Origin: an uncultured Rhodospirillaceae bacterium
GTDB taxonomy: Bacteria; Pseudomonadota; Alphaproteobacteria; Rhodospirillales; UBA2165
Assembly: GCA_964574215.1 (NCBI GenBank)
Contig: CAZNLR010000010.1
Coordinates: 9,954-73,953 of the forward strand
Direction of reading: 5' to 3'
Length of the DNA stretch: 64,000 nt
Below, in pieces: positions 6,373-59,328 of this stretch. The notes under the pieces are model-generated. The model made no database searches and was not told where the DNA came from. It was given only the letters and a program-made list of their open reading frames with translations. Both the position numbers and the translations under genes were made by a program. Positions within the stretch are counted from its first letter, which is position 1. Each line of letters begins with the position of its first letter.

Positions 6373-6422
6373 AGCGTGGCGGCGCCTAATCGCCACTGCC
6401 CCATTTTAACAAGGAGGATGTT

Positions 6423-7910: not shown

Positions 7911-7940
7911 CCTTAATTCTAGATTAAGAAGGAGCTAACA

Positions 7941-8954: not shown

Positions 8955-8967
8955 GAACGGGAATTAT

Positions 8968-9627: not shown

Positions 9628-9671
9628 AGGGGGAGTAACTCTTGATCAAATATCTCTCTAATTCCAATCAG

Positions 9672-9770
9672 CCCCCCCACCCTAACCCTCCCCCTCCAGG
9701 GGGGAGGGGAAATAAAATAATGCCCTCTTTTCTTCCTCCCCCCTGGAGGGGGAGGATAGAGGTGGGGGGG
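9672..9770. repeat. Pair of inverted GC-rich REP-like palindromic units (BIME-like)
   Basis: Unit A is 9672-9709 (CCCCCCCACCCTAACCCTCCCCCTCCAGGGGGGAGGGG). Unit B is 9735-9770 in inverted orientation, with 32 of 36 aligned positions identical after reverse-complementing. Each unit has its own 9-bp stem CCCTCCCCC/GGGGGAGGG. Confidence 0.8.
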
Positions 9771-9799
9771 AAGCTTTCAAAAAACGGGGCTATATATTC

Positions 9800-10453: not shown

Positions 10454-10455
10454 CT

Positions 10456-11082: not shown

Positions 11083-11113
11083 AGGGCCGCTCTAAAAACC
11101 GAGGGATCATTCA

Positions 11114-14619: not shown

Positions 14620-15371
14620 TGACTGAAAGCATTCTCTTAAAAGATATCAAAGATCATGTCGCCGTGTTAACCCTCAACCGGCCCGACCAGGCCAATTCCC
14701 TGAGCCAGGATCTTTTTATTGCTCTCAAGGTCACGCTGGCGGAGTTGGACGCCGACGGCGAAGTGCGGGTGGTGGTGATGACTGGGGCCGGGGAACGGTT
14801 TTTTTGCGCCGGTGTCGACCTCAAAGAACGCGGCGCCATGACCGAGGACGAGGTCTGGGAAAACCGGAAAGTCGCCGTCAAACCCTGCTTCGATGCCTTC
14901 CGCACTTTTTCGAAACCGATCATCGCCGCCGCCAATGGCGTGGCCCTGGGCGGCGGCGCGGAGATTGCGCTGGCTTGCGACATTCGGCTGGCTGTACCCC
15001 ATGCCCAATTCGCCCATACGGAAATCAACTGGGGCATGATCCCGGCGGCGGGCGCCCATCAGCGGCTTCGCAATGTGGTCGGTCTCGGCATGGCCAAGGA
15101 GATCATGTTCACGGGCCGTAAGCTGGAGGCAGAAGAGGCCGGGCGGTTGGGCATCTACAATCATATTTACGCTCCCGACCAACTGATGCCGGAAGCTATG
15201 ACGATGGCTTCAACCATCGCCGGGCATTCACCCCTGGCGGTGCGGCAATCGAAAAAGGTCTACGACACCGGTGCTTATTCCGAAGAGGACTTCGAGTTCG
15301 AATACCAGGCCTCCATCGAATGCTATACCGACGGCGAGGCCATGACCGGCGCCAAGAGATTCAAGAAATAG
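14619..15371 (+). CDS. Enoyl-CoA hydratase/isomerase (crotonase fold)
   Basis: ATG 14619 overlaps the TetR stop (TGATG); the track start TTG 14616 is also possible. Motifs are FFCAGVDLKE and ANGVALGGGAEIALACDIRLA. Confidence 0.85.
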   Translation: MTESILLKDIKDHVAVLTLNRPDQANSLSQDLFIALKVTLAELDADGEVRVVVMTGAGERFFCAGVDLKERGAMTEDEVWENRKVAVKPCFDAFRTFSKPIIAAANGVALGGGAEIALACDIRLAVPHAQFAHTEINWGMIPAAGAHQRLRNVVGLGMAKEIMFTGRKLEAEEAGRLGIYNHIYAPDQLMPEAMTMASTIAGHSPLAVRQSKKVYDTGAYSEEDFEFEYQASIECYTDGEAMTGAKRFKK

Positions 15372-15529
15372 TTAATTTATCGACTGTCGATTAATTCATA
15401 CACTTTCACAACTTCGTTAATTCTCAACTGTCGAGAAATTGTCCTCTGGTCTAAAAACGTGAGAATTCAGCGACCAAAGGTTAATTTAACGACTGTCGAT
15501 TAATTCACAGGCTTTCACAACTTGGTTAA
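15371..15529. repeat. Two 50-bp direct repeats carrying CGACTGTCG-centred palindromes
   Basis: Repeats are 15371-15420 and 15480-15529, with 45/50 positions identical. Each begins with the near-palindrome TTAATTTxxCGACTGTCGATTAATT. A third related palindrome, TTCTCAACTGTCGAGAA (15421-15437), lies in the 59-bp spacer. Repeat 1 starts on the last base of the + gene stop, and repeat 2 covers the stop of the - gene. Confidence 0.85.
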
Positions 15530-16410
15530 AGCCCCAGCACTCTAATCGCGTTATCCCGCAGCAGCTTCTTCTTCACCGCATGTTTCAAGCCCAGTTCGTG
15601 GACCTGGGGCAGGATGTGGTCGTGGGTGAAGGCGGTGGGGCCATTGGTGCCCCAGAGGACCTTGTCCTGGCCGCGGGTTTTGACGAAGGTGAGCAGGCTT
15701 TTGTCCCAGTATTTCGGCATATGGGCGTCCATGCCCACATAGACGTTGTCGTGCTTCCAGGCCATGGCGATCATTTCCTCGCACCAGGGCCAGCCGGTGT
15801 GGGTGCCGACGATGGTCAGGCCCGGAAAATCCAGGGCGATGTTGTCCAACAGGATGGGTCGCGCGTGTTCGCTGGGCATGCTTTCCGCCGAATGTCCCAC
15901 CTGCATGGAAACGGGCACCCCCAGTTCCTCGCATTTGGCGTAGAAGGGATAGAGCCGGCGGTGGTCAATGGGAATGTTGAAACCGTAGACATGCAGATAG
16001 GCGGCCTTAAAGCCGAACTCCTTGATGCCCCGTTCCATATCGCGGACACCGTCCATGCCCTTCAGCGGGTTGATGCCGGCGAAACCGATGAAGCGGTCGG
16101 GGTGGGCTTCGATCACTTCGGCCATTTCCTCGTCGGTGACGTCGATGATAATGCGGTCTTCTTTGTAGGACTTCATTTTGAACTGCATCATGCAATGTCT
16201 TTCGACACCCGCCTCGTCCATCAGCGCCACCATTTCGTCCGGGGTCCAGCCCTTGCGGATGACCTCGTCAAACTTCCACCACTCGGCCAGTTTGCGCAGC
16301 TCGTCACTGGCGAACCAGTATTTCTCGAAATACTGCTGGGTAAACATATAGCCCATGAAATCGATGGCCTTAATTTCCTCTTCTTCTTCAATATTTTCCT
16401 TATCGGACAT
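15526..16410 (-). CDS. Amidohydrolase-2 family hydrolase/decarboxylase
   Basis: 294 aa with the Amidohydro_2 pattern (VSMQVGHS, IVGTHTGWPW, GMDAHMP). It is the last gene of a minus-strand CoA-metabolism operon. Confidence 0.65.
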   Translation of the reverse strand: MSDKENIEEEEEIKAIDFMGYMFTQQYFEKYWFASDELRKLAEWWKFDEVIRKGWTPDEMVALMDEAGVERHCMMQFKMKSYKEDRIIIDVTDEEMAEVIEAHPDRFIGFAGINPLKGMDGVRDMERGIKEFGFKAAYLHVYGFNIPIDHRRLYPFYAKCEELGVPVSMQVGHSAESMPSEHARPILLDNIALDFPGLTIVGTHTGWPWCEEMIAMAWKHDNVYVGMDAHMPKYWDKSLLTFVKTRGQDKVLWGTNGPTAFTHDHILPQVHELGLKHAVKKKLLRDNAIRVLGL

Positions 16411-16436
16411 AATGCGTTCCTCTTATTGTAATTTTT

Positions 16437-17189
16437 TTAGAGACCAAACATGCCGCCGTCGACATTGATGACTTGGCCGTGAATATAGTGGCCTTCGTCC
16501 GAGGCCAGATATCTGAACATGGGGGCGATCATGTCGGTGGTGCCGAATTTGCCCATGAGAATGCGGTTGAGGGTCGCCTCCCGGAATTTTTCGTCGCCCC
16601 TGATGGTTTCGGTCATGGCCGTTTCCACCACGCCCGGGCAGACGGCGTTGACGTTAATGTCGTAGCGGGCCAATTCCTTGGCGCAGCTTTTCATCAGACC
16701 CAGCATACCGCCCTTGGCGGCGCCGTAATTGCATTGGCCGATGGTGCCTTCCGATCCGGCGATTGAAGATACGAAAATGATGGAGCCGTAATTCTGCCCC
16801 TTCATGTGGCGCGCCGCCTCCCGTGTACAGAGGAACGACCCGGTTAGGTGGGAGTTGATCACATTAAACCATTTATCCAGCGTCATATTGGTCAGCATGG
16901 CCGGGTCGGAGGCGCCGGCGCAATTGACCAGAATATCCACCTTGCCGTAGGTCTCCACCGTGTGATCCACCAGGGAGATAACCTGGTTTTCATCGCCCAC
17001 ATCGGTTTGGACGAAAATTCCCTTGCCGCCCATGCCTTCGATCTGGGAGAGGGTCTCCTTGACCTCGTCGTGTTCGGCGATATCGGATATGACCACCGTG
17101 GCGCCTTCACGGACGAACTCCAACGCGCCCGCCTTACCGATGCCGCGGCCGCCACCGGTAATGATCGCTACTCTGCCAGCCAGTTTCAT
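16437..17189 (-). CDS. SDR oxidoreductase, FabG-like (3-oxoacyl/3-hydroxyacyl reductase type)
   Basis: 250 aa with TGGGRGIGKA, NCAGA and the catalytic YGAAK. Confidence 0.8.
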   Translation of the reverse strand: MKLAGRVAIITGGGRGIGKAGALEFVREGATVVISDIAEHDEVKETLSQIEGMGGKGIFVQTDVGDENQVISLVDHTVETYGKVDILVNCAGASDPAMLTNMTLDKWFNVINSHLTGSFLCTREAARHMKGQNYGSIIFVSSIAGSEGTIGQCNYGAAKGGMLGLMKSCAKELARYDINVNAVCPGVVETAMTETIRGDEKFREATLNRILMGKFGTTDMIAPMFRYLASDEGHYIHGQVINVDGGMFGL

Positions 17190-17211
17190 GGCCTGCCTCC
17201 CCCGTTCAGTC

Positions 17212-18402
17212 TCAAATTACCCCATCTTCCCTAAGCTGCGCTCGCGCCGTTTCGTCGTAGCCGAGCTCGCTCAAAATTTCATCGGTATGCTGGCCGAAAG
17301 TGGGCGACGGTGAACGCAAGGTGTCCAGCTCGCCGGAAAAGCGGGCCGGGAAATCCAGTTGAACCTGTCGGCCCCGGTCCGGATCGTCCATCTCGGTTAT
17401 CAGTCCCCTCTCCCGAAGATGTTCGTCCTTCAGCATTTGGACAGTATCGAGGACCGGTATGACGCAGGTGTCCACGTCTTTAAGAAGATCGACCCACTCC
17501 TGCTGGGTCTTTCCGCCGATCAATTTCTTGACCGCCTCGGTGCCTTCTTCTCCTTCCCGGTAGTCCTCCAAATGGTGTTCCATCAAATCCATCCGGTCGG
17601 CGGCCTCCAGGAAATTCCGCCAGAATTTTTCCTCGTTGCAGCCCAGGGACATAAAGCGGCCGTCCTTGGTTTCATACGTATTGTAGACGATGCTGCCGCC
17701 TCTGAGATCGACCGGACGGGCGCGTTGGCCCTTTTGAGCGGCGAAGTGTTCGGCCACGCCCAGCAGATTGAAAGATGCCATAACATCGCTTTGGCAAACG
17801 TCGATATACTGGCCCCCGTTTTCATTTGGGCCCGTGTTGGCTTTCCCCATCAAAGCTGCCAAAACGGCAAAAGCGGTAAACAGGCCGCCGCCCGCCAAAT
17901 CGGAGAACAGCGCTCCCGGCACCACAGGGCGGCCGGTATGCTGACCGGTCAGATTGAGAATGCCGGAAAGGGCGAGGTAATTGAGGTCGTGCCCCGGCTT
18001 GTCCCGCAGCGGCCCCGTCTGGCCGAAACCGGTGGTGGAGCAATATATGATGTCCGGTTTAATCTCCTTGACCACATCGTAACCCAAACCCAGCCGTTCC
18101 ATGACTCCTGGCCGGAAACTTTCGATGATGACGTCGTAGTCGGGCACCAGTTTTTTGAAAATGGCAATGCCGTCCTCGTGCTTGAAGTTGAGCTTGAGGC
18201 TCTTTTTGTTGCGGTTGGCGAGAAGGAAGGCAGCGCTTTCATAAGACTGAGTGGCTTCGCCCCATCGGCCGTAATCGCCGACCGTGGGCTCCTCCACTTT
18301 GACCACCTCGGCGCCGAGATCGCCCAACAACATGGTGCAGTAATGATAAGGCAGCAGTCGGGTGCAATCTAGGATGCGGACGCCGGCGAGGGGTTGGTAC
18401 AT
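17212..18402 (-). CDS. Family III CoA-transferase (CaiB/BaiF type)
   Basis: 396 aa. The N-terminus LAGVRILDCTRLLPYHYCTMLLGDLGAEVVKVEEP is typical of the family. Confidence 0.85.
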   Translation of the reverse strand: MYQPLAGVRILDCTRLLPYHYCTMLLGDLGAEVVKVEEPTVGDYGRWGEATQSYESAAFLLANRNKKSLKLNFKHEDGIAIFKKLVPDYDVIIESFRPGVMERLGLGYDVVKEIKPDIIYCSTTGFGQTGPLRDKPGHDLNYLALSGILNLTGQHTGRPVVPGALFSDLAGGGLFTAFAVLAALMGKANTGPNENGGQYIDVCQSDVMASFNLLGVAEHFAAQKGQRARPVDLRGGSIVYNTYETKDGRFMSLGCNEEKFWRNFLEAADRMDLMEHHLEDYREGEEGTEAVKKLIGGKTQQEWVDLLKDVDTCVIPVLDTVQMLKDEHLRERGLITEMDDPDRGRQVQLDFPARFSGELDTLRSPSPTFGQHTDEILSELGYDETARAQLREDGVI

Positions 18403-18423
18403 AAAGGAACTCCGTTAGTAGCT

Positions 18424-19599
18424 CTAATTTACATGGTTCGATAGGATAATCACCACCGAGTTGCTGATGGAGCGGCCGCCCACATTGTGTTGCAACCCGT
18501 AGCCGTTTTTGATTTCCACTTGGCGCTCACCCGCTTCCTCGCGCAGATGCCAATAGAGTTCGCAACATTGGGCGACGCCCGTCGCCCCCAGGGGGTGGCC
18601 CTTGCACAACAGGCCGCCGCTGACATTTACCGGCAGGTCGCCGTCCCGTTCGGTGACGCCTTTTTCGATCAGGTGCTTGGCGTCGCCCCGGTCACAAAAC
18701 CCTAAATCTTCGTAGTCGATGATTTCGGTGATGGAGAAGCAATCATGCACTTCGGCGATATCCAACTGGTCCGGCGCAATGCCCGCCATGGTGTAGGCCT
18801 CTTTGGCGGACTTCACGGTCGCTTCGTAAGACGTATAGGATTCCACCTCGTGCTGATAATAATAATCGGTGCCGCAACCCATGCCCGCAATGTAGACCGG
18901 CTTGTCGGTGAACTTTTCGGCGATGTCGGCGTTGCAGATCAATAAACATGCCGCACCGTCGGTCTGGGGGCAGCAATCGAGAATATTAAGAGGCTCACAG
19001 ACGGTGGGCGATTTCATGACGTCTTCCACGGTGATTTCCGACTGGAACTGGGCATATGGGTCCAGGACGCCGTTTTTTCTGTTTTTAACCGCGACTTGGG
19101 CCATCTGTTCCTTGGTGAGGCCGTATTCGTGCATATAGCGGATGGCTTTGGGGGCGAACATGGTCATAGCCGTCTCGCCCAATGTCAGCAAAGGATGGCC
19201 CTGAACGGCAATGCCCAACAAGCCGCTGGTGGGCGCATCCCGCATTTTTTCGTAGCCGGCCACCAAGGCAACATCGTAGATACCCGACGCCACCCCGAAG
19301 GCGGCGTTGCGCAGCGTGTCGCTGCCGGTGGGGCAGCCGTTTTCCACGCGGGTGCAGGGGATGCCCGCCAATCCCAAATGACCCACCAGGCTGACGCCGC
19401 CCTGGGCGCCCTGGCCGTGCAGTTCGGGCCGTGCCGTGCCGATCCAGGCGGCCTGGATATCCTTGGGGTCCATGCCTTTGTCGACGCTGGCCAGACATGC
19501 CAGATAGGCTTCCTCCAGCATGACCTCCCAGCTTTTCTCAAAAAGCTCGCCAAACGGAATCATGCCCGCGCCGACCAAGGCCACCCGGTTCCAACCCAT
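18424..19599 (-). CDS. SCP-x-type thiolase (thiolase-like, non-AtoB type)
   Basis: 391 aa. The nucleophile context VENGCPTGS and the C-terminal motifs EVHDCF and GGLLCKGHPLGATG are retained. Its start overlaps the upstream gene's stop by 1 nt. Confidence 0.8.
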   Translation of the reverse strand: MGWNRVALVGAGMIPFGELFEKSWEVMLEEAYLACLASVDKGMDPKDIQAAWIGTARPELHGQGAQGGVSLVGHLGLAGIPCTRVENGCPTGSDTLRNAAFGVASGIYDVALVAGYEKMRDAPTSGLLGIAVQGHPLLTLGETAMTMFAPKAIRYMHEYGLTKEQMAQVAVKNRKNGVLDPYAQFQSEITVEDVMKSPTVCEPLNILDCCPQTDGAACLLICNADIAEKFTDKPVYIAGMGCGTDYYYQHEVESYTSYEATVKSAKEAYTMAGIAPDQLDIAEVHDCFSITEIIDYEDLGFCDRGDAKHLIEKGVTERDGDLPVNVSGGLLCKGHPLGATGVAQCCELYWHLREEAGERQVEIKNGYGLQHNVGGRSISNSVVIILSNHVN

Positions 19600-21056
19600 C
19601 AGTTGCTCCCCCCATTAATTCTAACGGGTCTAAAGACGTTGCCGTAGACGGCCACACCCTCCTGGGTGACAATTTTGCGCATCACCAGTTCGACCGGCAT
19701 ATCGATTTCCACATCGTCGGAAGTGCGAATTTCCGTGCCCAGCGCTCGGTAGCGATTGCCGTCATCCAGATCACCGATGATTAACGCCTGTGGCGCGGTA
19801 AGGGGTGGCGGTACATAGAGACTGAGGCAATAAGTGTGAACCGTACCGTTCCGGGACAATACCCAAGGGTCGAAGTCCGTACCACCGCAGCGGACGCATA
19901 TTTTTCTTATGGTGGCGGGATAACAGATATAGCCGCACGCCGTACACTTAATGGCGTCTCGCCGCCTGATTTCCCTGCCGTCCCGCCACAAGGCGGCGGA
20001 TGCAGGGGGCAGGCCGATCTTGGTTGGCGTATCCTGTTTTTCCAGCGTTCCTTTCATTCGGGCAAAGGCGACGTATTCCTCTACAGGGAAATTATCCTCG
20101 ACATAGGAGGAAACAGATTTAGACCGGTCTTTGATCGTTACGATAGCATCGGTCACGCGCAGCGAGACGGCGTCGCTGGCGCCGGACCCATAGGAGAGAA
20201 CCAGCACCCGTTGTCCCGGTTCGGCGTGATCCAAAATATCGGCGAGTCCGACCATTGCCGATGCCGCGCCCAGATCGCCCAAAGAATTAAATATATTACC
20301 GTGGCTAAAATGATCCTGACTGGCGCCAAGGGTTTTGACCATTCCTTTCACCATGCCGGCGTTGGGTTGTTGCAGGACGACATGGTCGAAATCACCAATG
20401 CCGGCCTGGAGTTTTTCCAGCAATCCGGTGGCGGCCGCTTCCATATGCTGCTTGTAACCGTAGTCCCGGGTAAAGCGCGGTTCGTATTCCTTGACGTATG
20501 GGCTGTCCGCATCCCGCCAGCGGTCGACAAAATTTGTAGCGTGGCTATAGGTTGCCTCAATTTCAGCGATAACGTTTTTCGTTCCCAACAGGAACGCCGC
20601 CGCGCCATCGCCGCAGTTCAGCTCCTCCTGGCTGCCCGCCGCTGCCGCACGCTCCTCGGCGCCGACCACCAGCCCGCTTTTGATGCGGCCCGACGCCACC
20701 GCGTCCTGGCAGGCTTTGAAAGCAGCGAAACTGGCCCGGGGTGAAGCGGTGAAATCGGCGTAATCGATCTCGTTACCGGCCCGCAGAACTTCGCCGATCA
20801 CACCCAGGGAAGAATGTTCGAAATCGAGGGCGGAGCCGGTGCCGAAATAGAGAGCGTTAAGGTCGGTGGCGCAGTCGATACCGGCATGGCTGACGGCGTT
20901 AAAGGCGGCCTCGGCGGCCATGGTGATGACATCTTCATCCGGACCGGCCACGGCATTGTTACCACGTCCACGGGACGACCATGCCTGGCCGATGACCGCG
21001 CGGTCGATGCGGTATTTGGGGATATAGACCCCGTATCCGGTAATGCCCACTGCCAT
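19599..21056 (-). CDS. HMG-CoA-synthase/KAS-III-fold domain fused to a DUF35 (Zn-ribbon + OB-fold) module
   Basis: 485 aa. The N-terminal ~345 aa align by eye to HMG-CoA synthase (FGTGS, NCGDGAAAFLLG, LSYGSGAS). The C-terminus has CTAC-x12-CVRC followed by an OB-fold-like segment, as in DUF35 proteins. Confidence 0.7.
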   Translation of the reverse strand: MAVGITGYGVYIPKYRIDRAVIGQAWSSRGRGNNAVAGPDEDVITMAAEAAFNAVSHAGIDCATDLNALYFGTGSALDFEHSSLGVIGEVLRAGNEIDYADFTASPRASFAAFKACQDAVASGRIKSGLVVGAEERAAAAGSQEELNCGDGAAAFLLGTKNVIAEIEATYSHATNFVDRWRDADSPYVKEYEPRFTRDYGYKQHMEAAATGLLEKLQAGIGDFDHVVLQQPNAGMVKGMVKTLGASQDHFSHGNIFNSLGDLGAASAMVGLADILDHAEPGQRVLVLSYGSGASDAVSLRVTDAIVTIKDRSKSVSSYVEDNFPVEEYVAFARMKGTLEKQDTPTKIGLPPASAALWRDGREIRRRDAIKCTACGYICYPATIRKICVRCGGTDFDPWVLSRNGTVHTYCLSLYVPPPLTAPQALIIGDLDDGNRYRALGTEIRTSDDVEIDMPVELVMRKIVTQEGVAVYGNVFRPVRINGGSN

Positions 21057-21065
21057 GGGAATATC

Positions 21066-21938
21066 TTAGCCTTTTTTACTGTGGTCGTAGAATCCTTTGC
21101 CGGTTTTAATGCCCAGATGACCCGCCGACACCATTTGACGCAGCAGCGGCGACGGCCGGAACCTGTCCCCCAATTTATGGGTCAGGTCGTCCAAGATCAT
21201 CAGGATGGTTTCCAAACCGATCAAATCGGAAAGTTCCAACGGACCCATCGGCCAATTGAACCCGTAACGGCAGGCCGCGTCGATATCTTCGGGCGAACTG
21301 ACGCCGTCGGCCAGGGTGTGGATGCCTTCGTTGATCATAATGATGCCGACCCGAGACGAGACAAAGCCGGGATAATCCTTGCAGGGGACGGGCGCCTTGC
21401 CGACCTCGGCCAGGAATTTGATCATCGTTTCCGTCGTTTCCGGGGCAGTGGAAAATCCATTGACCACCTCGACCAGTTTCATCACCGCGGGCGGGTGGTG
21501 AAAATGAGTGCCGATGGTCCGCCCCGGGTGTTTGGTCTGGTTCATCACATCGGTAATGGGCAACGCCGACGTGGTGGTCGCCAGGATAACGTTCTCCGGC
21601 ATCAGGGCATCCAAATCCGTCGCGATTTTGCGCTTGATATCGACGTTTTCGGGCGCCGCTTCGATAACCATATCGACATCCGCTGCCTCTTCGTAACTTT
21701 TGACCAAAGAAAGCCGTGAGGCGATGTCCTTGAAATCGGCCTCCGTGTATCTGCCTTTTTCGACGCCGCGGTTGACCGCCGCCAGAATTTTATCGTGGCC
21801 CTTTTGAGCGGCTTCTTCGGAGGCATCGAATAATTTGACCTCGGCGCCGCCGGTGACACAAACCTGGGCGATGCCGTGGCCCATTTGCCCTGCGCCCACA
21901 ACCAGTACTTTTTTAATATCCAAGGTGATCCCTCCCAT
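21066..21938 (-). CDS. 3-hydroxyacyl-CoA dehydrogenase (Hbd-like)
   Basis: 290 aa with VLVVGAGQMGHGIAQV. ATG 21938 has no SD. The sequence ATGGGAGGGATCACCTTG suggests the true start may be the TTG five codons downstream, using GGGAGGG as its SD. Confidence 0.85.
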   Translation of the reverse strand: MGGITLDIKKVLVVGAGQMGHGIAQVCVTGGAEVKLFDASEEAAQKGHDKILAAVNRGVEKGRYTEADFKDIASRLSLVKSYEEAADVDMVIEAAPENVDIKRKIATDLDALMPENVILATTTSALPITDVMNQTKHPGRTIGTHFHHPPAVMKLVEVVNGFSTAPETTETMIKFLAEVGKAPVPCKDYPGFVSSRVGIIMINEGIHTLADGVSSPEDIDAACRYGFNWPMGPLELSDLIGLETILMILDDLTHKLGDRFRPSPLLRQMVSAGHLGIKTGKGFYDHSKKG

Positions 21939-22198
21939 AAATATAACAAAAAACGAACGACCGTTTTTAAAATATTATGTGCTTAATTTAACCTTGTCAA
22001 CGGCGTCCGGCCAAGCCGGAAATTCGGTTTCGAAAGCCGTGAATGGAGTGATTTTTTACCTGAATTGCCGGACAAGTAAGTTGTATTTCAAGGTACGATT
22101 AGACAATAATAGCGATCCGGTTGTATTTTTACAGTCGGTTAAATGCTCGTCAGTCCACGCTTTATCGGCGTTGGGTATGATTGTAGGGAAAATTAACA

Positions 22199-22564
22199 AT
22201 GCCTAGAATTTTGGTAATTGACGATGAGGAAATGGTCCGGGAAACGCTGCGTTTGGTTCTTGAAAACAAGGGCTATGAGGTTGAAGAAGCGGAGAACGGC
22301 GCCGATGGCATTGATTTGCAGCGGAAAAATCCTTTTGATCTGATCATTACGGACATTCTTATGCCCACCCAAGAAGGGATAGGAACCATCGTCGAGTTGA
22401 AAAAAGAATTTAAAGACATCCGGATCATCGCAATTTCCGGCGGTGGACGGACCGATAAAGTCGACTATTTGGAAAGCGCGTCCATGCTGGGCGCCAACAA
22501 GGTCCTGGCCAAGCCTTTTTCCAACGAAGAGCTTGTTTTATCGGTGGAGGAATGTCTTCAATAA
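22199..22564 (+). CDS. Single-domain response regulator (CheY-like receiver)
   Basis: 121 aa with ILVIDDE, the phospho-acceptor context LIITDILMP, and KPF. There is no output domain, and no histidine kinase in the window. Confidence 0.85.
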   Translation: MPRILVIDDEEMVRETLRLVLENKGYEVEEAENGADGIDLQRKNPFDLIITDILMPTQEGIGTIVELKKEFKDIRIIAISGGGRTDKVDYLESASMLGANKVLAKPFSNEELVLSVEECLQ

Positions 22565-22667
22565 GGGACATTGATCTGCGACGTACAAAAATTTAGCTCA
22601 ATAGCTGTCGTTTTTTCGAAAAGCCGAAGAACTAAAAAAAATGCTCGGACTTTAAGGGGGCGTATAA

Positions 22668-24215
22668 ATGTTGAATCTCTGGCAGGCCTTGGACCGCACC
22701 ATTCGCCACAATTTGGATCGCACGGCGATCGTCGAAAAAATCGATGGCACCGCTTCCACCATGTCTTGGCGCGAGTTCGGCGAACGCGTTGGAAAATCTT
22801 CCGGTGTTTTGAAAGACCAAGGCGTATCCGAAGGGGCTGGATACGGCATATGTATGAAAAATTCCGCTCGTTTCGATGAGATCAAGTGGGCCGGATTTAG
22901 AGCCGGTGCCATCCCGGTGCCCATCAACTGGCGGCTGGCGCCACCCGAGATCGTGCATATCCTGGAAGACTCGGGCGCCGAAACGGTTTTTGTCGAAGCC
23001 GATTTTCTGCCGCTGTTCGAGGCGCCGGAATTGCAGCCGTGGCGCGACAAGCTGATATGCACCGATACGCCGGAGAATGGATCGGACTATTTGGTTTACG
23101 ACGATTTGTTCGAAAAGGCGGGGACCCCCGCGGCGGCTGATGTCGATCCGGAAGAAGACGCCATCCTTCTCTACACTGGCGGCACCACCGGCCGCAGCAA
23201 AGGCGTACGGCTTAGCCACACCAATATCTACACCTGCGCGGTGGCTTATACGATGGGACTGCAGGGCAAACCGGATGATGTCTATCTGCACGTGGCGCCC
23301 ATGTTTCATTCAGCTGATTTGCTGGCGACCGGCTGGTTTCTAATCGGCGCCGGGCAGGCCTATCTGCCCATGTTTTCGCCGCCCGCTCTCTTCGATGCCA
23401 TTGAAATATGCAGCGTAACCGTCGTCATATTGGTCCCGACGATGGTCATTATGACGCTCAACGATCCAAGTTTTGCCGCCTTTGACAGATCGAGCCTGCG
23501 CCGCATCGCCATTGGATCGGCGCCGCTCGCCCCGGAGCTTTCCAAAGGGCTGGCGGACAACTTCCCCGATGTCGGATTGTCCAATACTTACGGTCTGACG
23601 GAAGTGGCGCCCGATTTGACCATATTCGAACCCGATGAATTCAGGGAAGCCATTGATAAGGATTTGCCCCACCGGGCGTCGGTGGGTAAGCCAAACGTGT
23701 TTGTCGATCTCAAAGTCGTGGACGAGGACGGACAGGAAGTCGAACAGGGCGAGAGTGGTGAATTGTGGGCGCGCGGACCCAATATTATGAAAGGATATCT
23801 GAACCTGCCGGAACAAACGGCAGAGGTTCTGGTGGATGGCTGGTTCAAAACCGGCGATGTCGCGCGGTTTGACGAAAACGGTTACGTTTATCTGCTGGAC
23901 CGCACCAAGGATATGATCATCACCGGCGGCGAGAACGTCTATTCCACCGAAGTGGAAAACGTGTTGTACAAACACCCCGATGTTATGGAATGCGCCGTCA
24001 TCGGCGTCGCCGACGACAAGCTAGGCGAAAAACTGATGGCGGTGATTGTCCGGCGGCCCGATACCGACCCGACCCCGGTGGACATCATTGCGCATTGCCG
24101 GGAATCCATCGGCGGCTATAAGATACCGAGGCATATCGAATTTGTCGACGCCATGCCCAAAAACGCCATGGGAAAAATTCTCAAGAACGAATTGAGGGAA
24201 ATCTATAGCCAATGA
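22668..24215 (+). CDS. AMP-forming acyl-CoA synthetase/ligase
   Basis: 515 aa. AMP-binding motifs are LLYTGGTTGRSKGV, YGLTE and WFKTGDVARFDENGYVYLLDRTKDMIITGGENV. Confidence 0.85.
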   Translation: MLNLWQALDRTIRHNLDRTAIVEKIDGTASTMSWREFGERVGKSSGVLKDQGVSEGAGYGICMKNSARFDEIKWAGFRAGAIPVPINWRLAPPEIVHILEDSGAETVFVEADFLPLFEAPELQPWRDKLICTDTPENGSDYLVYDDLFEKAGTPAAADVDPEEDAILLYTGGTTGRSKGVRLSHTNIYTCAVAYTMGLQGKPDDVYLHVAPMFHSADLLATGWFLIGAGQAYLPMFSPPALFDAIEICSVTVVILVPTMVIMTLNDPSFAAFDRSSLRRIAIGSAPLAPELSKGLADNFPDVGLSNTYGLTEVAPDLTIFEPDEFREAIDKDLPHRASVGKPNVFVDLKVVDEDGQEVEQGESGELWARGPNIMKGYLNLPEQTAEVLVDGWFKTGDVARFDENGYVYLLDRTKDMIITGGENVYSTEVENVLYKHPDVMECAVIGVADDKLGEKLMAVIVRRPDTDPTPVDIIAHCRESIGGYKIPRHIEFVDAMPKNAMGKILKNELREIYSQ

Positions 24216-26938
24216 CTTCGATCCCTCGGGACAAAAAACGGATACCAGTTTACTGCCATCAGTGCACGTCGGGACCCGACATGCTGACCGTAGAGGTGGA
24301 CGACGGCATTGCCACCCGTATTGAATCGAATTACGAGCTCGCCGGCATTCACCCGGGTGACGGCCGGGTCTGCGTCAAGGCGTATGGTTTGATCCAGAAA
24401 ACCTACAATCCCAACCGCATCAAACAGCCCATGAAACGGACCAATCCCAAAAAGGGGCGGGAGCATGACCCCGGCTTTGCACCGATATCATGGGAAGAAG
24501 CCTTTGACATCGTCGGCGAAAAATTGCGTTCGATCCGCGCCAAGGGTGTACGCGACGAGACCGGTGCACCGCGTCTGGCTGCCAGCTTCGGCGGCGGCGG
24601 CACGCCTATCCGCTATATGGGAACCTTGCCCGCTTTTTTGGCGGCTTGGGGACCGGCGGATTTGGGCTTCGGTTCGGGCCAGGGGGTGAAATGCTATCAT
24701 TCGGAGCATCTTTACGGTGAATTATGGCACCGGGCCTTTATCGTTGCTCCGGACACCCCCTATGTCCGCTATGTAATAAATTGCGGCAACAACGTCGAAG
24801 CGGCGGGCGGCGTCGCCGGTGTCAAACGTCATGCCGATGCGCGGGTTCGGGGACAGAAAAGGGTGCAGGTGGAACCTCACCTGTCGGTAACCGGCGCGGT
24901 TTCCGCCGAATGGGTGCCGATCAAACCAAAAACCGACGCGGCGTTTTTGTTCGGCCTGATCCACCGGATCATCATCGAGCGCGACTGGCAGGATGTGTGC
25001 GACGTGCCCTTCCTGAAAGACATGTCCAACTCGCCCTATCTGGTGGGCCCCAACGGCTACTATCTGCGCGATCCGGAAAGCGAAAAGCCGCTGGTCTGGG
25101 ACCAGACGGAAAATTCGGCCAAATCATACGATCAGGAAAGAAACGATCCCGCCATGACCGGACATTATGAAGTCTCGGGATTGGAAATCGGGCCGGACAA
25201 TCAGCGGTGGTCGCACGATGCAATTTCGGCCAGTCCGTCATTCCAGGTTCTGATCGACCATATGGCACCCTATTCACCGGACTGGGCTGCCGATGAGTGC
25301 GAGGTGCCGGCGGAGACCATTCGCCGCATTGCCGATGAATATCTGGACAACGCCTGCATCGGCGAGACCATTGAGATCGAGGGGGAGACCATGCGCTTCC
25401 GGCCGGTCGCCGTGACCCTGGGTAAGACGGTCAACAACGGCTGGGGCGGCTATCACGCCTGCTGGGCCCGGACCATGCTGGCGGTTTTGGTGGGGGCGCT
25501 GGAAACACCGGGTGGCATCATAGGATGCCGCGTCCAGTTGGTCAGACCGGCCGACAGCCGGACCGGTTCGGCATTGCCGGGACCGGACGGCTTTATGAAC
25601 TATAAATTCAATGAAACCTCCGCCAACGGATGGATACGGACGCCGGAAATCCGCAACGCTTTTTCGACATTGGTGCCGCTGGTGTCGAATTCGCCTTGGT
25701 CGCCGGCGCTGGGTCCAGCCCATTTGCCGTGGTTGTTCCAAAAAGAGCCGCCCAAAAACTGGCCGCGCCAGAGCCTGCCGGAAATGTGGATATGCTACCG
25801 CACCAATCCGGCCATATCGTCCTGGAAAGCGGCGGACGTGGCCGAAAGGATCGCCGAATTCCCCTTTACCGTGGCCTTCGCCTACACCGATGATGAAACC
25901 AACCACATGGCGGATATTCTGCTGCCCGAGGCGACTGATCTGGAAAGCCTGCAGCTGATTCGCATCGGTGGTACCACCTACACCGAAAATTTCTGGCGCC
26001 AGGAAGGGTGGGCCATCCGCCAGCCGGCGGTGGATCCGGTTCACGACAACAGGGATATGACCGACATCGCCACGGAACTGGCGCGCCAGGCGGGTGTGCT
26101 GGAGGAATACAACAAGGCGGTCAATTCGGGGGCTGCGGGGGCCAAGCTCAAAGACGAGGATTTCGACTATTCTCTCGATCCCGGAACCGTTCATAGCCGG
26201 GACGACATCTGGGACGCTCATTGCAAGTCGGCCAGCCACCAATTGTCGGATGGCGATGAGGTCAACGGTCTGGACTGGTTCAAGGATAACGGTTTCATGC
26301 TGCGCGATTTTTCCCAGTTGCAGTGGTATCTCCAGCCGTTCCTTGAGCGCCAGAATCTGCGTTTTGAATTACCCTATCAGGAAAGGCTGACCCGTCACGG
26401 ACGGGAACTTGCTAACCGGCTGAAAGAGACCGGTATCGATTGGTGGGACAGCCAGTTGGAGGAGTACGAGTTCCTACCCACCTATCATTCATTTTCCGAT
26501 ATCTGGCTGAATTACGCCGAAGAATATGACCGGGATCCGGGCGAATTCCCGTTTTGGGCGCTGACTTCCCATACCATGCAGTATCAATGGGGCGGTAACG
26601 TCGGCATTCCGATTATCAAGGAAGTCGCCGACAACGTCACCGGACACAAAGGTATCATCATCAACCGATCCAAGGCGCATTCCATGGGCATCGAAGACGG
26701 CGACCAGGTGACGATTGAATCCGTTGCCGGGGAAACGTCCGGCCGGGCGCAACTCCGCGAAGGTATTCGTCCCGACACGGTCTTGATGATCGGGCAATTT
26801 GACCACTGGAAAACGCCGGTTGCCAAGGATTTCAATCTGCCGAGTTTGAACTCGGTTACCGATTTATCGCTCAAACTGACGGATTCTTCCGGCAGCGGCG
26901 CTGATCTCATGCGGGTAAAGATTTCCCCCTGCTTGTGA
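24212..26938 (+). CDS. Molybdopterin (bis-MGD, DMSO-reductase superfamily) oxidoreductase, cytoplasmic, stand-alone catalytic subunit
   Basis: 908 aa. The start ATG overlaps the ligase stop (ATGA). The N-terminal Cys segment is C15-x2-C18...C54. The C-terminal beta-barrel segment is INRSKAHSMGIEDGDQVTIESVAGETSGRAQLREGIRPDTVLM. There is no twin-arginine signal and no adjacent FeS or cytochrome subunit genes. Confidence 0.75.
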   Translation: MTSIPRDKKRIPVYCHQCTSGPDMLTVEVDDGIATRIESNYELAGIHPGDGRVCVKAYGLIQKTYNPNRIKQPMKRTNPKKGREHDPGFAPISWEEAFDIVGEKLRSIRAKGVRDETGAPRLAASFGGGGTPIRYMGTLPAFLAAWGPADLGFGSGQGVKCYHSEHLYGELWHRAFIVAPDTPYVRYVINCGNNVEAAGGVAGVKRHADARVRGQKRVQVEPHLSVTGAVSAEWVPIKPKTDAAFLFGLIHRIIIERDWQDVCDVPFLKDMSNSPYLVGPNGYYLRDPESEKPLVWDQTENSAKSYDQERNDPAMTGHYEVSGLEIGPDNQRWSHDAISASPSFQVLIDHMAPYSPDWAADECEVPAETIRRIADEYLDNACIGETIEIEGETMRFRPVAVTLGKTVNNGWGGYHACWARTMLAVLVGALETPGGIIGCRVQLVRPADSRTGSALPGPDGFMNYKFNETSANGWIRTPEIRNAFSTLVPLVSNSPWSPALGPAHLPWLFQKEPPKNWPRQSLPEMWICYRTNPAISSWKAADVAERIAEFPFTVAFAYTDDETNHMADILLPEATDLESLQLIRIGGTTYTENFWRQEGWAIRQPAVDPVHDNRDMTDIATELARQAGVLEEYNKAVNSGAAGAKLKDEDFDYSLDPGTVHSRDDIWDAHCKSASHQLSDGDEVNGLDWFKDNGFMLRDFSQLQWYLQPFLERQNLRFELPYQERLTRHGRELANRLKETGIDWWDSQLEEYEFLPTYHSFSDIWLNYAEEYDRDPGEFPFWALTSHTMQYQWGGNVGIPIIKEVADNVTGHKGIIINRSKAHSMGIEDGDQVTIESVAGETSGRAQLREGIRPDTVLMIGQFDHWKTPVAKDFNLPSLNSVTDLSLKLTDSSGSGADLMRVKISPCL

Positions 26939-27034: not shown

Positions 27035-27781
27035 ATGATGAATAAATCGGGTAGCAAAAAGAAACAGACATCTCGGGAGACGGCCGAGCTGCAAAATCTC
27101 GACGGCGTAGAACGTGGGCTCGATGGCGTCCTCTTGTTTGCCGATCTCAATGCAGAGGATCGGCAGCATCTCGAAAAAAGATGCCGGTGGCACGAATTTA
27201 AAAGAAATTCCGGGGTTATTCAGAAGGGCGAAGAAAATAGCGACGTTTATATCCTGGTGTCCGGCGCCGCCCATGTTTTGAACTACTCCGACAAGGGGCG
27301 GGTTATCGATTACGCGACATTGGGAGCGGGAGACGTTTTCGGTGAATTGGCGGCCATCGACGGGTTGCCCCGGTCGGCTTCGGTCGTGACGACGAAGCAA
27401 AGCTTGATTGCATCTCTCGCCGGTAGCGATTTTCTGGATTTTGTCACCGAACATCCGGAGGTCAGCCTTGCATTGTTTCGAAAGCTGGCGGGTATCATCC
27501 GCATGGGCGACGATCAAATTTCGGATCTCAGTCTTTTGGGAGCTGAGCAACGGGTCTGCCTTGAACTCCTGCGTATGGCCGAGCCCGACCCGGCCTATTT
27601 TGAAAATCTGATAATATTTCCCATACCCACCCAATCGCACATCGCCAACGGCGTCGGTGTGGCGCGGGAGACCGTGGCCAGAATTTTCAGTAAACTGACC
27701 CAGGACAATATCATCGAGCGCAAAGAAAAAACCCTCTATATCCGCGATCCCGAGAAGCTGGAAAATATTGCCCTCAATTGA
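27035..27781 (+). CDS. CRP-like transcriptional regulator (cNMP-binding domain + HTH)
   Basis: 248 aa with the cNMP-binding segment GDVFGELAAIDGLPRSASVVT. The C-terminal HTH IANGVGVARETVARIFSKLTQDNIIE resembles the CRP RE..R recognition helix. It has no FNR-type Cys cluster. Confidence 0.8.
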   Translation: MMNKSGSKKKQTSRETAELQNLDGVERGLDGVLLFADLNAEDRQHLEKRCRWHEFKRNSGVIQKGEENSDVYILVSGAAHVLNYSDKGRVIDYATLGAGDVFGELAAIDGLPRSASVVTTKQSLIASLAGSDFLDFVTEHPEVSLALFRKLAGIIRMGDDQISDLSLLGAEQRVCLELLRMAEPDPAYFENLIIFPIPTQSHIANGVGVARETVARIFSKLTQDNIIERKEKTLYIRDPEKLENIALN

Positions 27782-27886: not shown

Positions 27887-28864
27887 ATGAAAAAAATTCT
27901 TGTCACCGGCGGCGCCGGCTATATCGGCAGTCACACTTGCAAATTGCTGGCCGCAAACGGGTACGACCCGGTTGTTTATGACGACCTCTCAACCGGGTAC
28001 GAATGGGCGGTGAAATGGGGAGAGTTGGAAATCGGCGGCCTCCGGGACGAAGCGCGTCTGTTAGAGGTTTGCCGGCTTCATAAACCGGAAGTGGTTTTGC
28101 ACTTTGCCTCTTTTATCAATGTCGGTGAATCGGTCTCCAATCCCATCAAGTATTACTCGAATAATGTCGGCGGCACGATGGCTCTGCTTAGGGTCATGCA
28201 GCAGTGCGGTATGAAGAATTTGGTCTATTCCTCGTCCTGCGCCGTCTATGGATTGCCGGAGTTTCTGCCCCTGACAGAAGGGCATAACCAGGCCCCGCAC
28301 AATCCATACGGCTGGAGCAAATTCATGTGCGAAAGGGTGATCGAAGATTACCAACAAGCCTTTGGGTTGCGTCACGTCGCGCTACGTTATTTCAATGCTG
28401 CCGGCGCCGATCCCGAGGGTGAAATCGGCGAAGCCCATTTGCCGGAAACCCATATCATTCCCCTGGTGCTGGATGTCGCCAAGGGACAGCGAGACGTCTT
28501 CACCGTTAACGGTAATGATTACGATACCGAGGACGGCACCTGCGTCAGGGATTACATTCACGTCAACGATCTGGCGTCGGCTCATCTGTTGGCTTTGGAG
28601 TATTTGTTAAACGGCGGCGACTCGCAGGCTTTCAATTTGGGCAACGGCGCGGGATATTCCATCCAGCAAGTTGTTGAAACGGCCCGGAAAATTACCGGCC
28701 ATACCATTCCTACCCGAGTCGGGGAGCGGCGCGCCGGAGATACACCGATGCTGATAAGCGATTCATCACGCGCCCATGATATATTGGGCTGGTCACCGTC
28801 TCGTGCGGATTTAGCCATCCAAATTGAAGACGCCTGGCGCTGGCACAAGAATTTCGAACATTAA
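27887..28864 (+). CDS. galE: UDP-glucose 4-epimerase
   Basis: 325 aa with KILVTGGAGYIGSH and the catalytic YGWSK. Full-length similarity to GalE from memory. Confidence 0.85.
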   Translation: MKKILVTGGAGYIGSHTCKLLAANGYDPVVYDDLSTGYEWAVKWGELEIGGLRDEARLLEVCRLHKPEVVLHFASFINVGESVSNPIKYYSNNVGGTMALLRVMQQCGMKNLVYSSSCAVYGLPEFLPLTEGHNQAPHNPYGWSKFMCERVIEDYQQAFGLRHVALRYFNAAGADPEGEIGEAHLPETHIIPLVLDVAKGQRDVFTVNGNDYDTEDGTCVRDYIHVNDLASAHLLALEYLLNGGDSQAFNLGNGAGYSIQQVVETARKITGHTIPTRVGERRAGDTPMLISDSSRAHDILGWSPSRADLAIQIEDAWRWHKNFEH

Positions 28865-28865
28865 T

Positions 28866-30659
28866 ATGTGCGGCGTAACGGCAATCTTTTCCTACGGCAA
28901 TGACGCCCCACCGGTGGACAGGCGACAGCTAGCGCGTATCAATGAAGCCATGGCGGTACGGGGTCCGGACGGCGAAGGTGAATGGATATCCGGTGACGGA
29001 AGAATAGGTCTGGGCCACCGCCGTCTGGCGATTATCGATCCCGGTCCCAGCGGCGCCCAGCCCATGACGCTGTGCGAGGATGACGGCCTGGTACAGCTGG
29101 CCATCACCTACAACGGTGAGATCTACAATTTTCGTGAGATTCGCCGGGAATTGATTAATCAGGGCCGCCGGTTGGTGACTCAATCGGATACCGAAGTCTT
29201 GCTTCATCTTTATGACCGCGACGGTCCGGATATGGTCCGGCGGTTGCGCGGCATGTTCGCCTTCGTAATTTGGGACGCCGAAAAAAAGGGCCTTTTTATG
29301 GCCCGTGATCCCTACGGCATTAAGCCGCTTTATTATGCCGATGACGGAAAGACGTTTTTTGCGGCGTCTCAGGTGAAGGCGCTTTCCGCCGGTGAGGTGG
29401 AAAAAGGGGACGCCAATCCGGCTGGCCATGTAGGATTTTTCCTGCTGGGATACGTGCCCGAACCCCATACATTGTTCGCCGCCATAAAGGCTTTGCCGGC
29501 CGGGTCGACCTTATGGCAGGGAAGGGATGGCAGCTTCAAACTGGACCGCTACTTCGATATACCGGACGTGCTGTCCAGGAACGATTTGCCTATGGACGGG
29601 CAGGATTTAAAAGAAATGGTCGCCGATTCCTTGGCTGAAAGCATCCGGCATCATCTCGTGTCCGACGTGCCGGTGGGGATGTTTCTTTCAGCCGGGCTGG
29701 ATTCCGCGACGGTGGCGGCCCTGACCTCCCAATGTTCCGAAACTCCTCTGGACAGCATGACCCTGCGGTTTGATGAATTTGCCGGAGGCGAAAATGACGA
29801 GGTGCCGTTAGCGGAGACTATCGCCAAACAGTACGGTACACGTCACACAACCCGGACCGTGAAAGGGGCGGATTTTCACAATGATCTGGACAATCTGATG
29901 GCAGCCATGGATCAGCCTTCCGTAGACGGCGTGAACACGTATTTCGTCGCCAAGGAAGCGGCCTCAATGGGGCTAAAGGTCGCTTTGTCGGGATTGGGCG
30001 GCGATGAGTTGTTCGGCGGCTATAATACGTTTCGCCAGGTACCGGCATTGGTGGGTACGCTTGGATGGATTCCCGGGATCAGCCAGGTTGGCGCCGTCTT
30101 AAGAAAATTCAGCGCGCCGCTTGTGTCGCAATTTACATCGCCAAAATATGCGGCAATGCTGGAATATTCCGGAAGTTACGCCAGCGCCTACTTTCTGCGG
30201 CGGGGGCTCTTTATGCCTTGGGAACTATTTAAGATCCTCGATCCCGATTTGGTGCGGTCCGGATGGAAAAATCTAAATTTGTTTACGAACTTGGAAACCA
30301 CGGTGCACGGAATCGATTCCGGTCACCGCAAAGTGGCGGCGCTTGAGAACGTTTGGTATATGCGCAATCAACTTTTGCGCGACGCCGATTGGGCGGGAAT
30401 GGCGCATTCACTGGAAATTCGCACACCCTTGGTCGATGCGGAACTGCTGCACCAATTGGGCGGCAGGGGCGCCACCAAGCAAATTATGGCGGCGGCTCCG
30501 AAAACGGCGCTTCCCGAAGCTGTACTCAACCGGCCGAAAACCGGCTTTTATGTTCCGGTGCAGGAGTGGCTGCTTGGCAACCAAGGGAATGGAGTTCCAG
30601 ACGAACGGGGGCTCCGCGGTTGGGCGAAAATCGTTTACGAAAATGCGCTAAAAGCGTAA
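28866..30659 (+). CDS. asnB: Asparagine synthase (glutamine-hydrolysing) family amidotransferase
   Basis: ATG 28866 gives the N-terminus MCGV, i.e. the Cys2 nucleophile of class II amidotransferases. The track start 28824 would bury it and overlap galE. It has the SGGLDS-type PP-loop variant SAGLDSA. Confidence 0.8.
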   Translation: MCGVTAIFSYGNDAPPVDRRQLARINEAMAVRGPDGEGEWISGDGRIGLGHRRLAIIDPGPSGAQPMTLCEDDGLVQLAITYNGEIYNFREIRRELINQGRRLVTQSDTEVLLHLYDRDGPDMVRRLRGMFAFVIWDAEKKGLFMARDPYGIKPLYYADDGKTFFAASQVKALSAGEVEKGDANPAGHVGFFLLGYVPEPHTLFAAIKALPAGSTLWQGRDGSFKLDRYFDIPDVLSRNDLPMDGQDLKEMVADSLAESIRHHLVSDVPVGMFLSAGLDSATVAALTSQCSETPLDSMTLRFDEFAGGENDEVPLAETIAKQYGTRHTTRTVKGADFHNDLDNLMAAMDQPSVDGVNTYFVAKEAASMGLKVALSGLGGDELFGGYNTFRQVPALVGTLGWIPGISQVGAVLRKFSAPLVSQFTSPKYAAMLEYSGSYASAYFLRRGLFMPWELFKILDPDLVRSGWKNLNLFTNLETTVHGIDSGHRKVAALENVWYMRNQLLRDADWAGMAHSLEIRTPLVDAELLHQLGGRGATKQIMAAAPKTALPEAVLNRPKTGFYVPVQEWLLGNQGNGVPDERGLRGWAKIVYENALKA

Positions 30660-46070: not shown

Positions 46071-47834
<1,764 letters not shown>

Positions 47835-59321: not shown

Positions 59322-59328
59322 GGATATT

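Follow-up and report, generated by a model that had tools for sequence, protein, structure and literature searches.

The phenylacetyl-coenzyme A (CoA):acceptor oxidoreductase PadBCD of Thauera aromatica and Aromatoleum (Rhee & Fuchs, 1999, cited in PMC9765128 and PMC4453571) provides the reference point for the locus described here; its reaction yields phenylglyoxylyl-CoA, which is then hydrolysed (PMC9765128). The literature searched mentions PadBCD only in a few Betaproteobacteria that denitrify and in anaerobic degraders related to them, always in the setting of the canonical pathway, and no structure of the complex turned up in searches of the PDB. No other molybdenum (Mo) enzyme is known to carry out an oxygen-independent oxidation at the alpha-carbon of a CoA thioester. 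This article describes a two-gene relative of the system, a FadD-type acyl-CoA ligase translationally coupled to a PadB-family Mo enzyme, found in an uncultured Rhodospirillaceae bacterium of a marine lineage. The window, meaning the whole stretch that was analysed, comprises 64,000 nt (64 kb) of one contig (CAZNLR010000010.1), and it is these 64 kb, not the whole genome, that the searches around the locus covered. The Mo enzyme falls within a large sister clade of the described PadB proteins, and its own lineage has kept it, under strong purifying selection, after losing the electron-transfer subunit that nearly all relatives encode next to it.

The locus is built from three consecutive open reading frames (ORFs) on the plus strand, delimited from the ORF list and Pfam matches: a response-regulator receiver at 22199–22564, the ligase at 22668–24215 and the Mo protein at 24212–26938. 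The ligase is a FadD-type acyl-CoA synthetase of 515 aa (AMP-binding, 249 bits; AMP-binding_C, 79 bits), and the Mo protein is a predicted cytoplasmic catalytic subunit of 908 aa of the Mo-bis(pyranopterin guanine dinucleotide) (Mo-bisPGD) type (PF00384, Molybdopterin; PF01568, Molydop_binding). The TGA stop of the ligase gene shares nucleotides with the ATG start of the Mo gene in an ATGA overlap at 24212–24215 on the plus strand, read directly from the sequence (agccaATGActtcg) and indicative of translational coupling. This 4-nt overlap is more than chance, since it is conserved in relatives, as ATGA in loci L003 and L004 and as GTGA in L088 and L092. The N-terminus of the Mo protein (MTSIPRDKKRIPVYCHQC) has no twin-arginine motif of the kind that directs export by the twin-arginine translocation (Tat) system, and because a cluster-binding CxxC already begins at residue 15 there is no space for a signal peptide. 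The original prediction, made from the letters alone, had given the reading frames, the overlap and the lack of a Tat signal exactly as they were found. It had also stated that no iron–sulfur (FeS), cytochrome or chaperone partner lies beside the Mo gene, and here too the analysis agrees: FeS, membrane-anchor, chaperone and FdhD-like genes are found neither beside the Mo gene nor anywhere in the window, and tblastn searches of the window gave no match for PadC, PadD, fused PadC and PadD (PadCD), FdhD, an FlK-type thioesterase, PadE to PadJ or PaaX, the lone exception being a generic ferredoxin similarity at 54.8–55.0 kb. IorAB and the small subunit of xanthine dehydrogenase (XDH)-family enzymes were likewise without a tblastn match in the window.

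By its full-length homology, Mo-bisPGD domains, N-terminal FeS motif and lack of a Tat signal, the Mo protein is classed as a member of the known PadB family, the one lineage of the dimethyl sulfoxide reductase family for which action on a CoA thioester is known, and so not as an orphan type. Over 903 aa it shares 57% identity with PadB of Thauera (917 aa), the best match in an exhaustive search of 50%-identity representatives, so that phenylacetyl-CoA:acceptor oxidoreductase, one of several examples named in the original prediction, proved to be the apt one. The Thauera reference is a genuine PadB because the loci of its type are canonical pad clusters: in Thauera (L083) the order is FdhD–PadB–PadC (215 aa, Fer4_11)–PadD (301 aa)–PaaX, and Azoarcus sp. 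DN11 (L085) has this core too, with five PadEFGHI genes and the PaaK-type ligase PadJ after it, an arrangement that corresponds to the published pathway cluster (PMC4453571; PMC5109826). The window protein falls outside the Rhodocyclales PadB proteins, in an Alpha- and Betaproteobacterial (Alpha/Beta) sister clade to whose members it is 66–73% identical. At least 120 homologues are present in the protein collection; among the matches listed, identity ranges from 66 to 91%, they derive from Alpha- and Betaproteobacterial genomes and from metagenomes, and many are labelled 'phenylacetyl-CoA:acceptor oxidoreductase' in IMG.

Two groups of residues point to the cofactors. The N-terminal motif C-x2-C-x4-D...C is common to the whole family down to members that are 38% identical, and in the window protein its putative ligands to the N-terminal cluster (FS0) are Cys15, Cys18, Asp23 and Cys54 (residues 15–54, window 24254–24373). 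Only three cysteines are thus present, with an aspartate replacing the usual third cysteine region; the equivalent position is a cysteine in protein P0125 and a histidine in P0129, which suggests that Asp23 may be the fourth cluster ligand. In itself, the motif may indicate that the PadB family has a [4Fe-4S] cluster with an Asp ligand, or else a [3Fe-4S] cluster. The Mo is probably bound by Cys161, which lies in a VKC motif that is invariant down to 38%-identical relatives and, in a profile alignment, within a few residues of a cysteine of the polysulfide reductase PsrA that we take to be the Mo ligand of that enzyme. An AlphaFold2 (AF2) model built from a 27-sequence alignment had a mean predicted local distance difference test (pLDDT) score of 67, with values below 50 around 152–181 and 431–448, and was used for fold search only and not for ligand or interface assignment.

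The fold search gave ArrA as best match, and by sequence and fold together ArrA (6cz7) and PsrA (2vpw) are the nearest solved structures; they share the architecture of the Mo protein, which has a cysteine near the position of the Mo-ligand cysteine of PsrA, but only 16–18% identity in structural alignment. NCBIfam gave sub-threshold matches only, the best of them from the Psr/Phs/Arr branch, and an identity as a reductase of that branch was rejected on the scores (PhsA, 147 bits against a cut-off of 694; ArrA, 109 against 1600) and on the lack of a Tat motif, those enzymes being Tat-exported and periplasmic and reducing inorganic substrates. A Tat motif (RRRF) does occur in the more distant relative P0129, whereas the PadB clades have none. 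Type II dimethyl sulfoxide (DMSO) reductases (ethylbenzene dehydrogenase, steroid C25 dehydrogenase and the Nar/Pcr enzymes) were set aside in the same way (TIGR03479, 85.9 against 984.75; EbdA, 20.8 against 2000; PDB entry 2ivf, E 5e-5), as was the pyrogallol transhydroxylase and resorcinol hydroxylase type, no transhydroxylase chain being present among the 17 PDB sequences with E <= 1e-3 or among the profile matches. The original prediction had offered steroid C25 dehydrogenase-type and transhydroxylase or resorcinol hydroxylase types as further examples, and these fall away. An identity as a BisC, TorZ or DorA protein was rejected by scores far under the cut-offs (bisC_fam, 59.6 bits against 1017.55; torA, 23 against 1465).

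A scan of one genome per species found a relative in 377 of 185,579 species genomes, and the best 80 of these 377 were analysed for gene neighbourhood, counting Pfam-assigned genes within 4 kb of PadB in 81 loci. Of the 78 loci whose sequence extends far enough past PadB, 77 carry a single gene of about 540 aa there; this gene matches Thauera PadC in its N-terminal half (59% identity) and PadD in its C-terminal half (35%), and it is therefore a PadC::PadD fusion. An FlK-type hotdog thioesterase (PF22636) lies directly upstream of PadB on the same strand in 31 of 81 loci. Enzymes that activate carboxylic acids with CoA are found in 44 of the 81: FadD-type ligases in 25, of which 19 are orthologous to the window ligase (43–54% identity), CaiB-family CoA-transferases in 13 and PaaK-type ligases in 10. 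The module typical of the clade would accordingly convert an acid to its CoA ester, oxidize it by PadB with transfer of electrons to PadC::PadD, and then hydrolyse the product thioester, which is the same order of events as described for PadBCD (PMC9765128). Other recurrent neighbours are PaaX regulators (L011, L041, L051 and L070), an IorAB-like 2-oxoacid:ferredoxin oxidoreductase (L017, L032, L074 and L077) and an XDH-family aldehyde-oxidase pair beside a PaaK-type ligase (L045, L049, L072, L080 and L081); taken together, these neighbours point to aryl-substituted acids as likely substrates of the clade. Short-chain dehydrogenases/reductases (SDRs; eight loci) and enoyl-CoA hydratases (eight loci) also recur near PadB in distant loci. 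The literature search on PadB and PadBCD returned nothing on this Alpha/Beta clade. The PadB catalytic subunit thus has a much larger sister clade with a conserved architecture of its own, in which PadB and the fused PadCD are joined by a CoA-activating enzyme and an FlK thioesterase.

Measured against these systems, the window locus is a reduced one. It shares with PadBCD a full-length homologous catalytic subunit of similar length (908 and 917 aa), the C-x2-C-x4-D...C and VKC motifs, the lack of a Tat signal and the association with a CoA-activating enzyme. It differs in that the window holds neither an adjacent PadC (four [4Fe-4S] clusters) nor PadD (the membrane anchor), which the wider clade carries as one fused gene, and in that FdhD, PadEFGHI and PaaX are missing, the search for pathway partners, PadJ included, having been made by tblastn of the window with the Azoarcus DN11 proteins. 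Its ligase is of the stop/start-coupled FadD type, whereas the canonical ligase is the PaaK-type PadJ. From the clade with fused PadC::PadD, in which an orthologous ligase stands upstream in about a quarter of the loci (19 of 68 informative ones), the window lineage differs by the lack of both thioesterase and PadC::PadD and by the 4-nt overlap that joins its ligase to PadB. The original prediction had named a lack of conservation of the ligase and the Mo gene as neighbours in other genomes as an outcome that would refute it, and these counts show that the pair does recur; it had also presented the enzyme as stand-alone, and as a property of the enzyme type this does not stand, given the 77 of 78 relatives, and the sister lineage described next, that carry PadC::PadD downstream.

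The absence of PadCD and of the FlK thioesterase is a recent, lineage-specific and derived loss. In a neighbour-joining tree the window protein, L003 and L004 form a clade nested within the PadCD-bearing clade, and an outgroup lineage with 85% identity (L088, L089 and L092 to L094) retains the order ligase (with GTGA overlap)–PadB–PadC::PadD, PadCD beginning 14 nt past the PadB stop. PadCD is lacking in the window, in L086, an independent assembly with an identical Mo protein, and in L003 and L087, in which the protein is 91% identical; the contig of L004 stops 94 bp past the Mo gene, and its PadCD state is not readable. Downstream of the Mo gene the window and L003 lineage has a CRP-like gene or its remnant, followed by galE–asnB–gmd. 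Because L003 (12828–12974) and L087 (4051–4197) keep a 48-aa N-terminal stump of the CRP-like gene, the common ancestor of the window and L003 already had the order PadB–CRP–galE without PadCD. Remnants of padCD were sought past the Mo gene in the window and in L003, L087 and L004, and at E <= 100 only noise came up. An orthologous PadCD relocated elsewhere in this lineage is unlikely: with the PadCD of the sister lineage as query against 5.8 billion proteins, only its own cluster (100%) was recovered and then none above 74%, and the 74%-identical proteins sit directly behind PadB genes of their own, which are 64–65% identical to the window Mo protein. PadB proteins of the PadCD-less lineage are well represented in the same collection, yet no matching orphan PadCD accompanies them. 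A transposase of insertion sequence (IS) type (DDE_3 plus helix-turn-helix) was noted directly after PadC::PadD in the sister lineage (L094, 2678–3735), and an element of this kind may have brought about the rearrangement by which the window lineage lost padCD.

Judged by its pattern of substitution, the PadB gene of the window lineage is clearly functional. Since the ancestor shared with L003 it has accumulated about 1.6 synonymous substitutions per site (dS) and 0.057 nonsynonymous ones (dN), a dN/dS of 0.036, and the value against L004 is 0.058; 350 of the 362 columns that the other members of the clade conserve are intact. The twelve remaining replacements are specific to the clade of the window, L003 and L004, and four of them cluster at residues 432–442 (25505–25537; V432T, L437I/M, T439C and K442Q), a region in which the AF2 model is unreliable. 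The ligase evolves under similar constraint (dN/dS 0.05–0.06). It is not of the PaaK/PadJ type (PF14535) of canonical pad clusters; its best NCBIfam match is PRK06187 (447 bits, under the cut-off of 476), and its nearest solved structures are the fatty-acyl/feruloyl-CoA synthetases 8weu and 8wev and FadD5.

The pair can be read, with somewhat better than even confidence, as a reduced form of a widespread module for the alpha-oxidation of acids, in which an arylacetate-like acid would be activated and the alpha-carbon of its CoA ester then oxidized without O2. By its domain family the ligase would make a CoA thioester of a carboxylic acid; the neighbourhood suggests that this acid is most likely arylacetate-like, with a free alpha-methylene. 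The cytoplasmic PadB-type enzyme would then oxidize the alpha-carbon of the acyl-CoA with water as oxygen donor, by analogy with PadBCD of Thauera and Aromatoleum, proceeding towards the 2-hydroxy- and 2-oxo-acyl-CoA without O2, and electrons would pass from the Mo, probably bound by Cys161, to the N-terminal cluster held by Cys15, Cys18, Asp23 and Cys54. In nearly all relatives they would continue through the fused PadC::PadD, with its four [4Fe-4S] clusters and membrane anchor, to quinone, and the FlK-type thioesterase would free the 2-oxoacid. Since PadCD and the thioesterase have been deleted while PadB remains under purifying selection, the window lineage would have to pass its electrons to a different acceptor and release the product by a different route, and the locus encodes neither. 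The translational coupling may fix the proportion of ligase to Mo enzyme. That the Mo enzyme acts on a CoA ester supplied by the coupled ligase, the central idea of the original prediction, is the best-supported reading, and it draws on both family memberships, the conserved coupling, the cytoplasmic location, the cluster and cysteine motifs, the purifying selection and the recurrence of CoA-activation, thioesterase and arylacetate-type genes near the relatives; the HpaB-like and LigB-type genes of the window were also counted towards an arylacetyl-type substrate. The identity of the ligase product with the substrate of the Mo enzyme, and an alpha-carbon oxidation as in PadBCD, are inferred steps. 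Several points weigh against the proposal. Substrate and reaction are deduced from a 57%-identical enzyme and from gene neighbours, the Alpha/Beta clade having no assayed member; the PaaX, Ior and thioesterase genes that some relatives have are without match in the 64 kb, in which, PadCD being absent, no electron route is visible either; the ligase is a generic FadD type and not a phenylacetate-CoA ligase; and the assignments of the Mo and Asp ligands rest on motif conservation, the AF2 model having a pLDDT below 50 at 152–181.

How the enzyme works after the loss can be envisaged in several ways. It is possible, and put forward tentatively, that PadB has become independent of PadC::PadD, so that a soluble, ligase-coupled enzyme oxidizes or hydroxylates the alpha-carbon of the acyl-CoA and passes electrons to a different soluble or borrowed acceptor. 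The same chemistry could instead still take place in a classical membrane-bound, quinone-reducing complex, if a PadC/PadD-type pair or another pair of beta and gamma subunits of the complex iron–sulfur molybdoenzyme (CISM) type, encoded elsewhere, acted in trans. Dependence on PadCD is after all the rule, as the 77 of 78 loci and the sister lineage attest, the FS0 motif and nearly all conserved residues have been kept, and a divergent substitute could lie beyond the 64 kb that were inspected; we nevertheless think this rather doubtful, as the protein collection holds no PadCD at 75–99% identity to that of the sister lineage, the nearest ones all stand behind their own PadB, and not one of the 78 loci shows a trans arrangement.

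A change of function after the loss is held to be a little less probable again. In that event the enzyme would catalyse a non-redox or self-contained reaction, or a reduction, possibly on a substrate other than the ligase product. Acetylene hydratase is a stand-alone, cytoplasmic enzyme with an FS0 cluster and no electron-transfer partner, and it is among the PDB matches of the Mo protein (2e7z), although as a weak and very distant one (E 1.5e-6), and it differs in being a non-redox tungsten enzyme without a link to a CoA ligase. The loss of the thioesterase and the twelve clade-specific replacements, with their cluster at 432–442, fit a new function as well; against it, the stop/start coupling to the ligase is conserved alike in the PadCD-containing sister lineage and in the PadCD-less ones, 97% of the conserved columns are unchanged, and other long branches that retain PadCD have changed to a similar degree (9 of 355 and 7 of 353). 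That the Mo gene is a non-functional relic of the padCD deletion might be argued from the loss of its dedicated partner and of the thioesterase and from the decay of the adjoining CRP gene in relatives; this is very improbable and was rejected on the dN/dS of 0.036–0.058 at saturated dS, the reading frame being intact in four independent assemblies and the ligase overlap conserved. Least credible of all is a soluble S- or N-oxide reductase of the BisC/TorZ kind, unrelated to CoA esters, which would also be a cytoplasmic, partnerless member of the DMSO reductase superfamily; its bisC_fam and torA scores are those given above, the nearest relatives are PadB, Psr and Arr, and the Mo protein has the FS0 cysteine motif, which to our knowledge the BisC/DorA type lacks. 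The original prediction had named clustering with BisC and TorZ as the outcome that would set it aside, and the protein does not group there.

The distribution of the clade suggests that arylacetate-type acids are widely alpha-oxidized as CoA esters among Alpha- and Betaproteobacteria, and the description of the large thioesterase–PadB–PadC::PadD clade is the more valuable by-product of the analysis. If PadB has indeed become independent of PadC::PadD, this would also point to a large family of O2-independent acyl-CoA alpha-oxidation modules in these classes, in marine and soil habitats. The window lineage itself amounts to a natural experiment in which PadB has long persisted in the absence of the electron-transfer subunit, raising the question of its electron acceptor. 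Should independence from PadCD be true, the enzyme would be a naturally minimized CISM. A soluble form with only two genes might also lend itself better to expression and crystallisation than the membrane complex does.

The immediate surroundings of the pair were placed as the original prediction described them, with an orphan receiver in front, a beta-oxidation-like operon to one side and a CRP-like regulator to the other. The regulator and the operon are not conserved parts of the system, and the order of activation, hydroxylation and then beta-oxidation that the prediction put forward is conjectural. The single-domain receiver (121 aa; 22199–22564, plus strand; PF00072, Response_reg, 90 bits) is the first gene of the plus-strand unit; its translation shows an acidic pocket, D52, S80 and K105, and L003 has a receiver 80% identical to it in front of the ligase. 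A different receiver (153–173 aa, 27% identical to that of the window) lies 134–143 bp upstream of PadB in L047, L056, L062 and L063, so that small orphan receivers recur beside this type of Mo enzyme. A sigma-70-like site at 22100–22129, upstream of the receiver, matches the consensus weakly, and in a promoter and terminator scan the site counts were not above shuffled expectation. The CRP/FNR-family regulator that adjoins the Mo gene (248 aa; 27035–27781, plus strand; cNMP_binding and HTH_Crp_2) is probably outside the functional unit: besides its 48-aa stump in L003 and L087, it is split into two ORFs in L086 (3814–4556) despite the identical Mo protein there. The divergent operon on the minus strand (15526–21938; Pfam and NCBIfam) encodes an amidohydrolase_2 protein, an SDR, a CaiB-type CoA-transferase, an SCP-x-type thiolase, a fusion of a 3-hydroxy-3-methylglutaryl-CoA synthase (HMGS)-like protein with an oligonucleotide/oligosaccharide-binding (OB) fold, and a 3-hydroxyacyl-CoA dehydrogenase, and a TetR regulator and enoyl-CoA hydratase on the plus strand (13963–15371) are associated with it in close relatives. 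This gene set stays beside ligase–PadB, rearranged, in L003 and L004, the enoyl-CoA hydratase and TetR genes standing directly upstream of the ligase in L004; the linkage is confined to the closest metagenome-assembled genomes. Within the operon, the HMGS-like protein (485 aa; 18424–21056, minus strand), which stands beside the SCP-x-type thiolase, carries a C-terminal OB-fold/DUF35 (ChsH2_C/BbsA-like) domain, which makes it similar to the archaeal-type thiolase/HMGS/DUF35 trio in fused form. Downstream, the mechanical ORF of the asparagine-synthase-like gene (28824–30659) begins at a TTG inside galE, with a 41-nt overlap, and its true start is probably further downstream, because the gene calls in L086 and L087 (597 aa) begin just past galE.

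The wider metabolic context of the window, comprising an aromatic block, the divergent operon, denitrification genes and an XDH subunit, is compatible with the proposal and not diagnostic of it. The region 5359–12850 resembles an aerobic aromatic-ring-cleavage block, with an amidohydrolase_2 protein, an HpaB-like hydroxylase (under the TIGR02309 cut-off), a LigB-type extradiol dioxygenase, three tandem RraA-like aldolase paralogues and a thiamine diphosphate enzyme of family PRK08327; the hydroxylase, dioxygenase, aldolases and thiamine diphosphate enzyme lie 10–18 kb upstream of the pair. A lone XDH-family Mo-binding subunit (38449–40791) follows a branched-chain-type ATP-binding cassette transporter, with no match for a [2Fe-2S] small subunit in the window, and shares 58% identity with the large subunit found beside PadBCD and a PaaK-type ligase in the five loci named above. 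A denitrification-type block at 46071–56089 holds nirS (cytochrome cd1), a NosR-like FMN_bind+Fer4_5 protein, a 565-aa NorB-like protein of the COX1 family, SCO1 and an unusual 534-aa fusion of a cytochrome b, two [4Fe-4S] motifs and an FlpD domain, its nirS and nor-like genes indicating a capacity for denitrification. Behind a further TetR regulator, a corrinoid methyltransferase set at 57224–61834 (a B12-binding protein, a fusion of methylenetetrahydrofolate reductase with DUF5981, and two URO-D/MtaA-like proteins) suggests methyl-group or O-demethylation metabolism.

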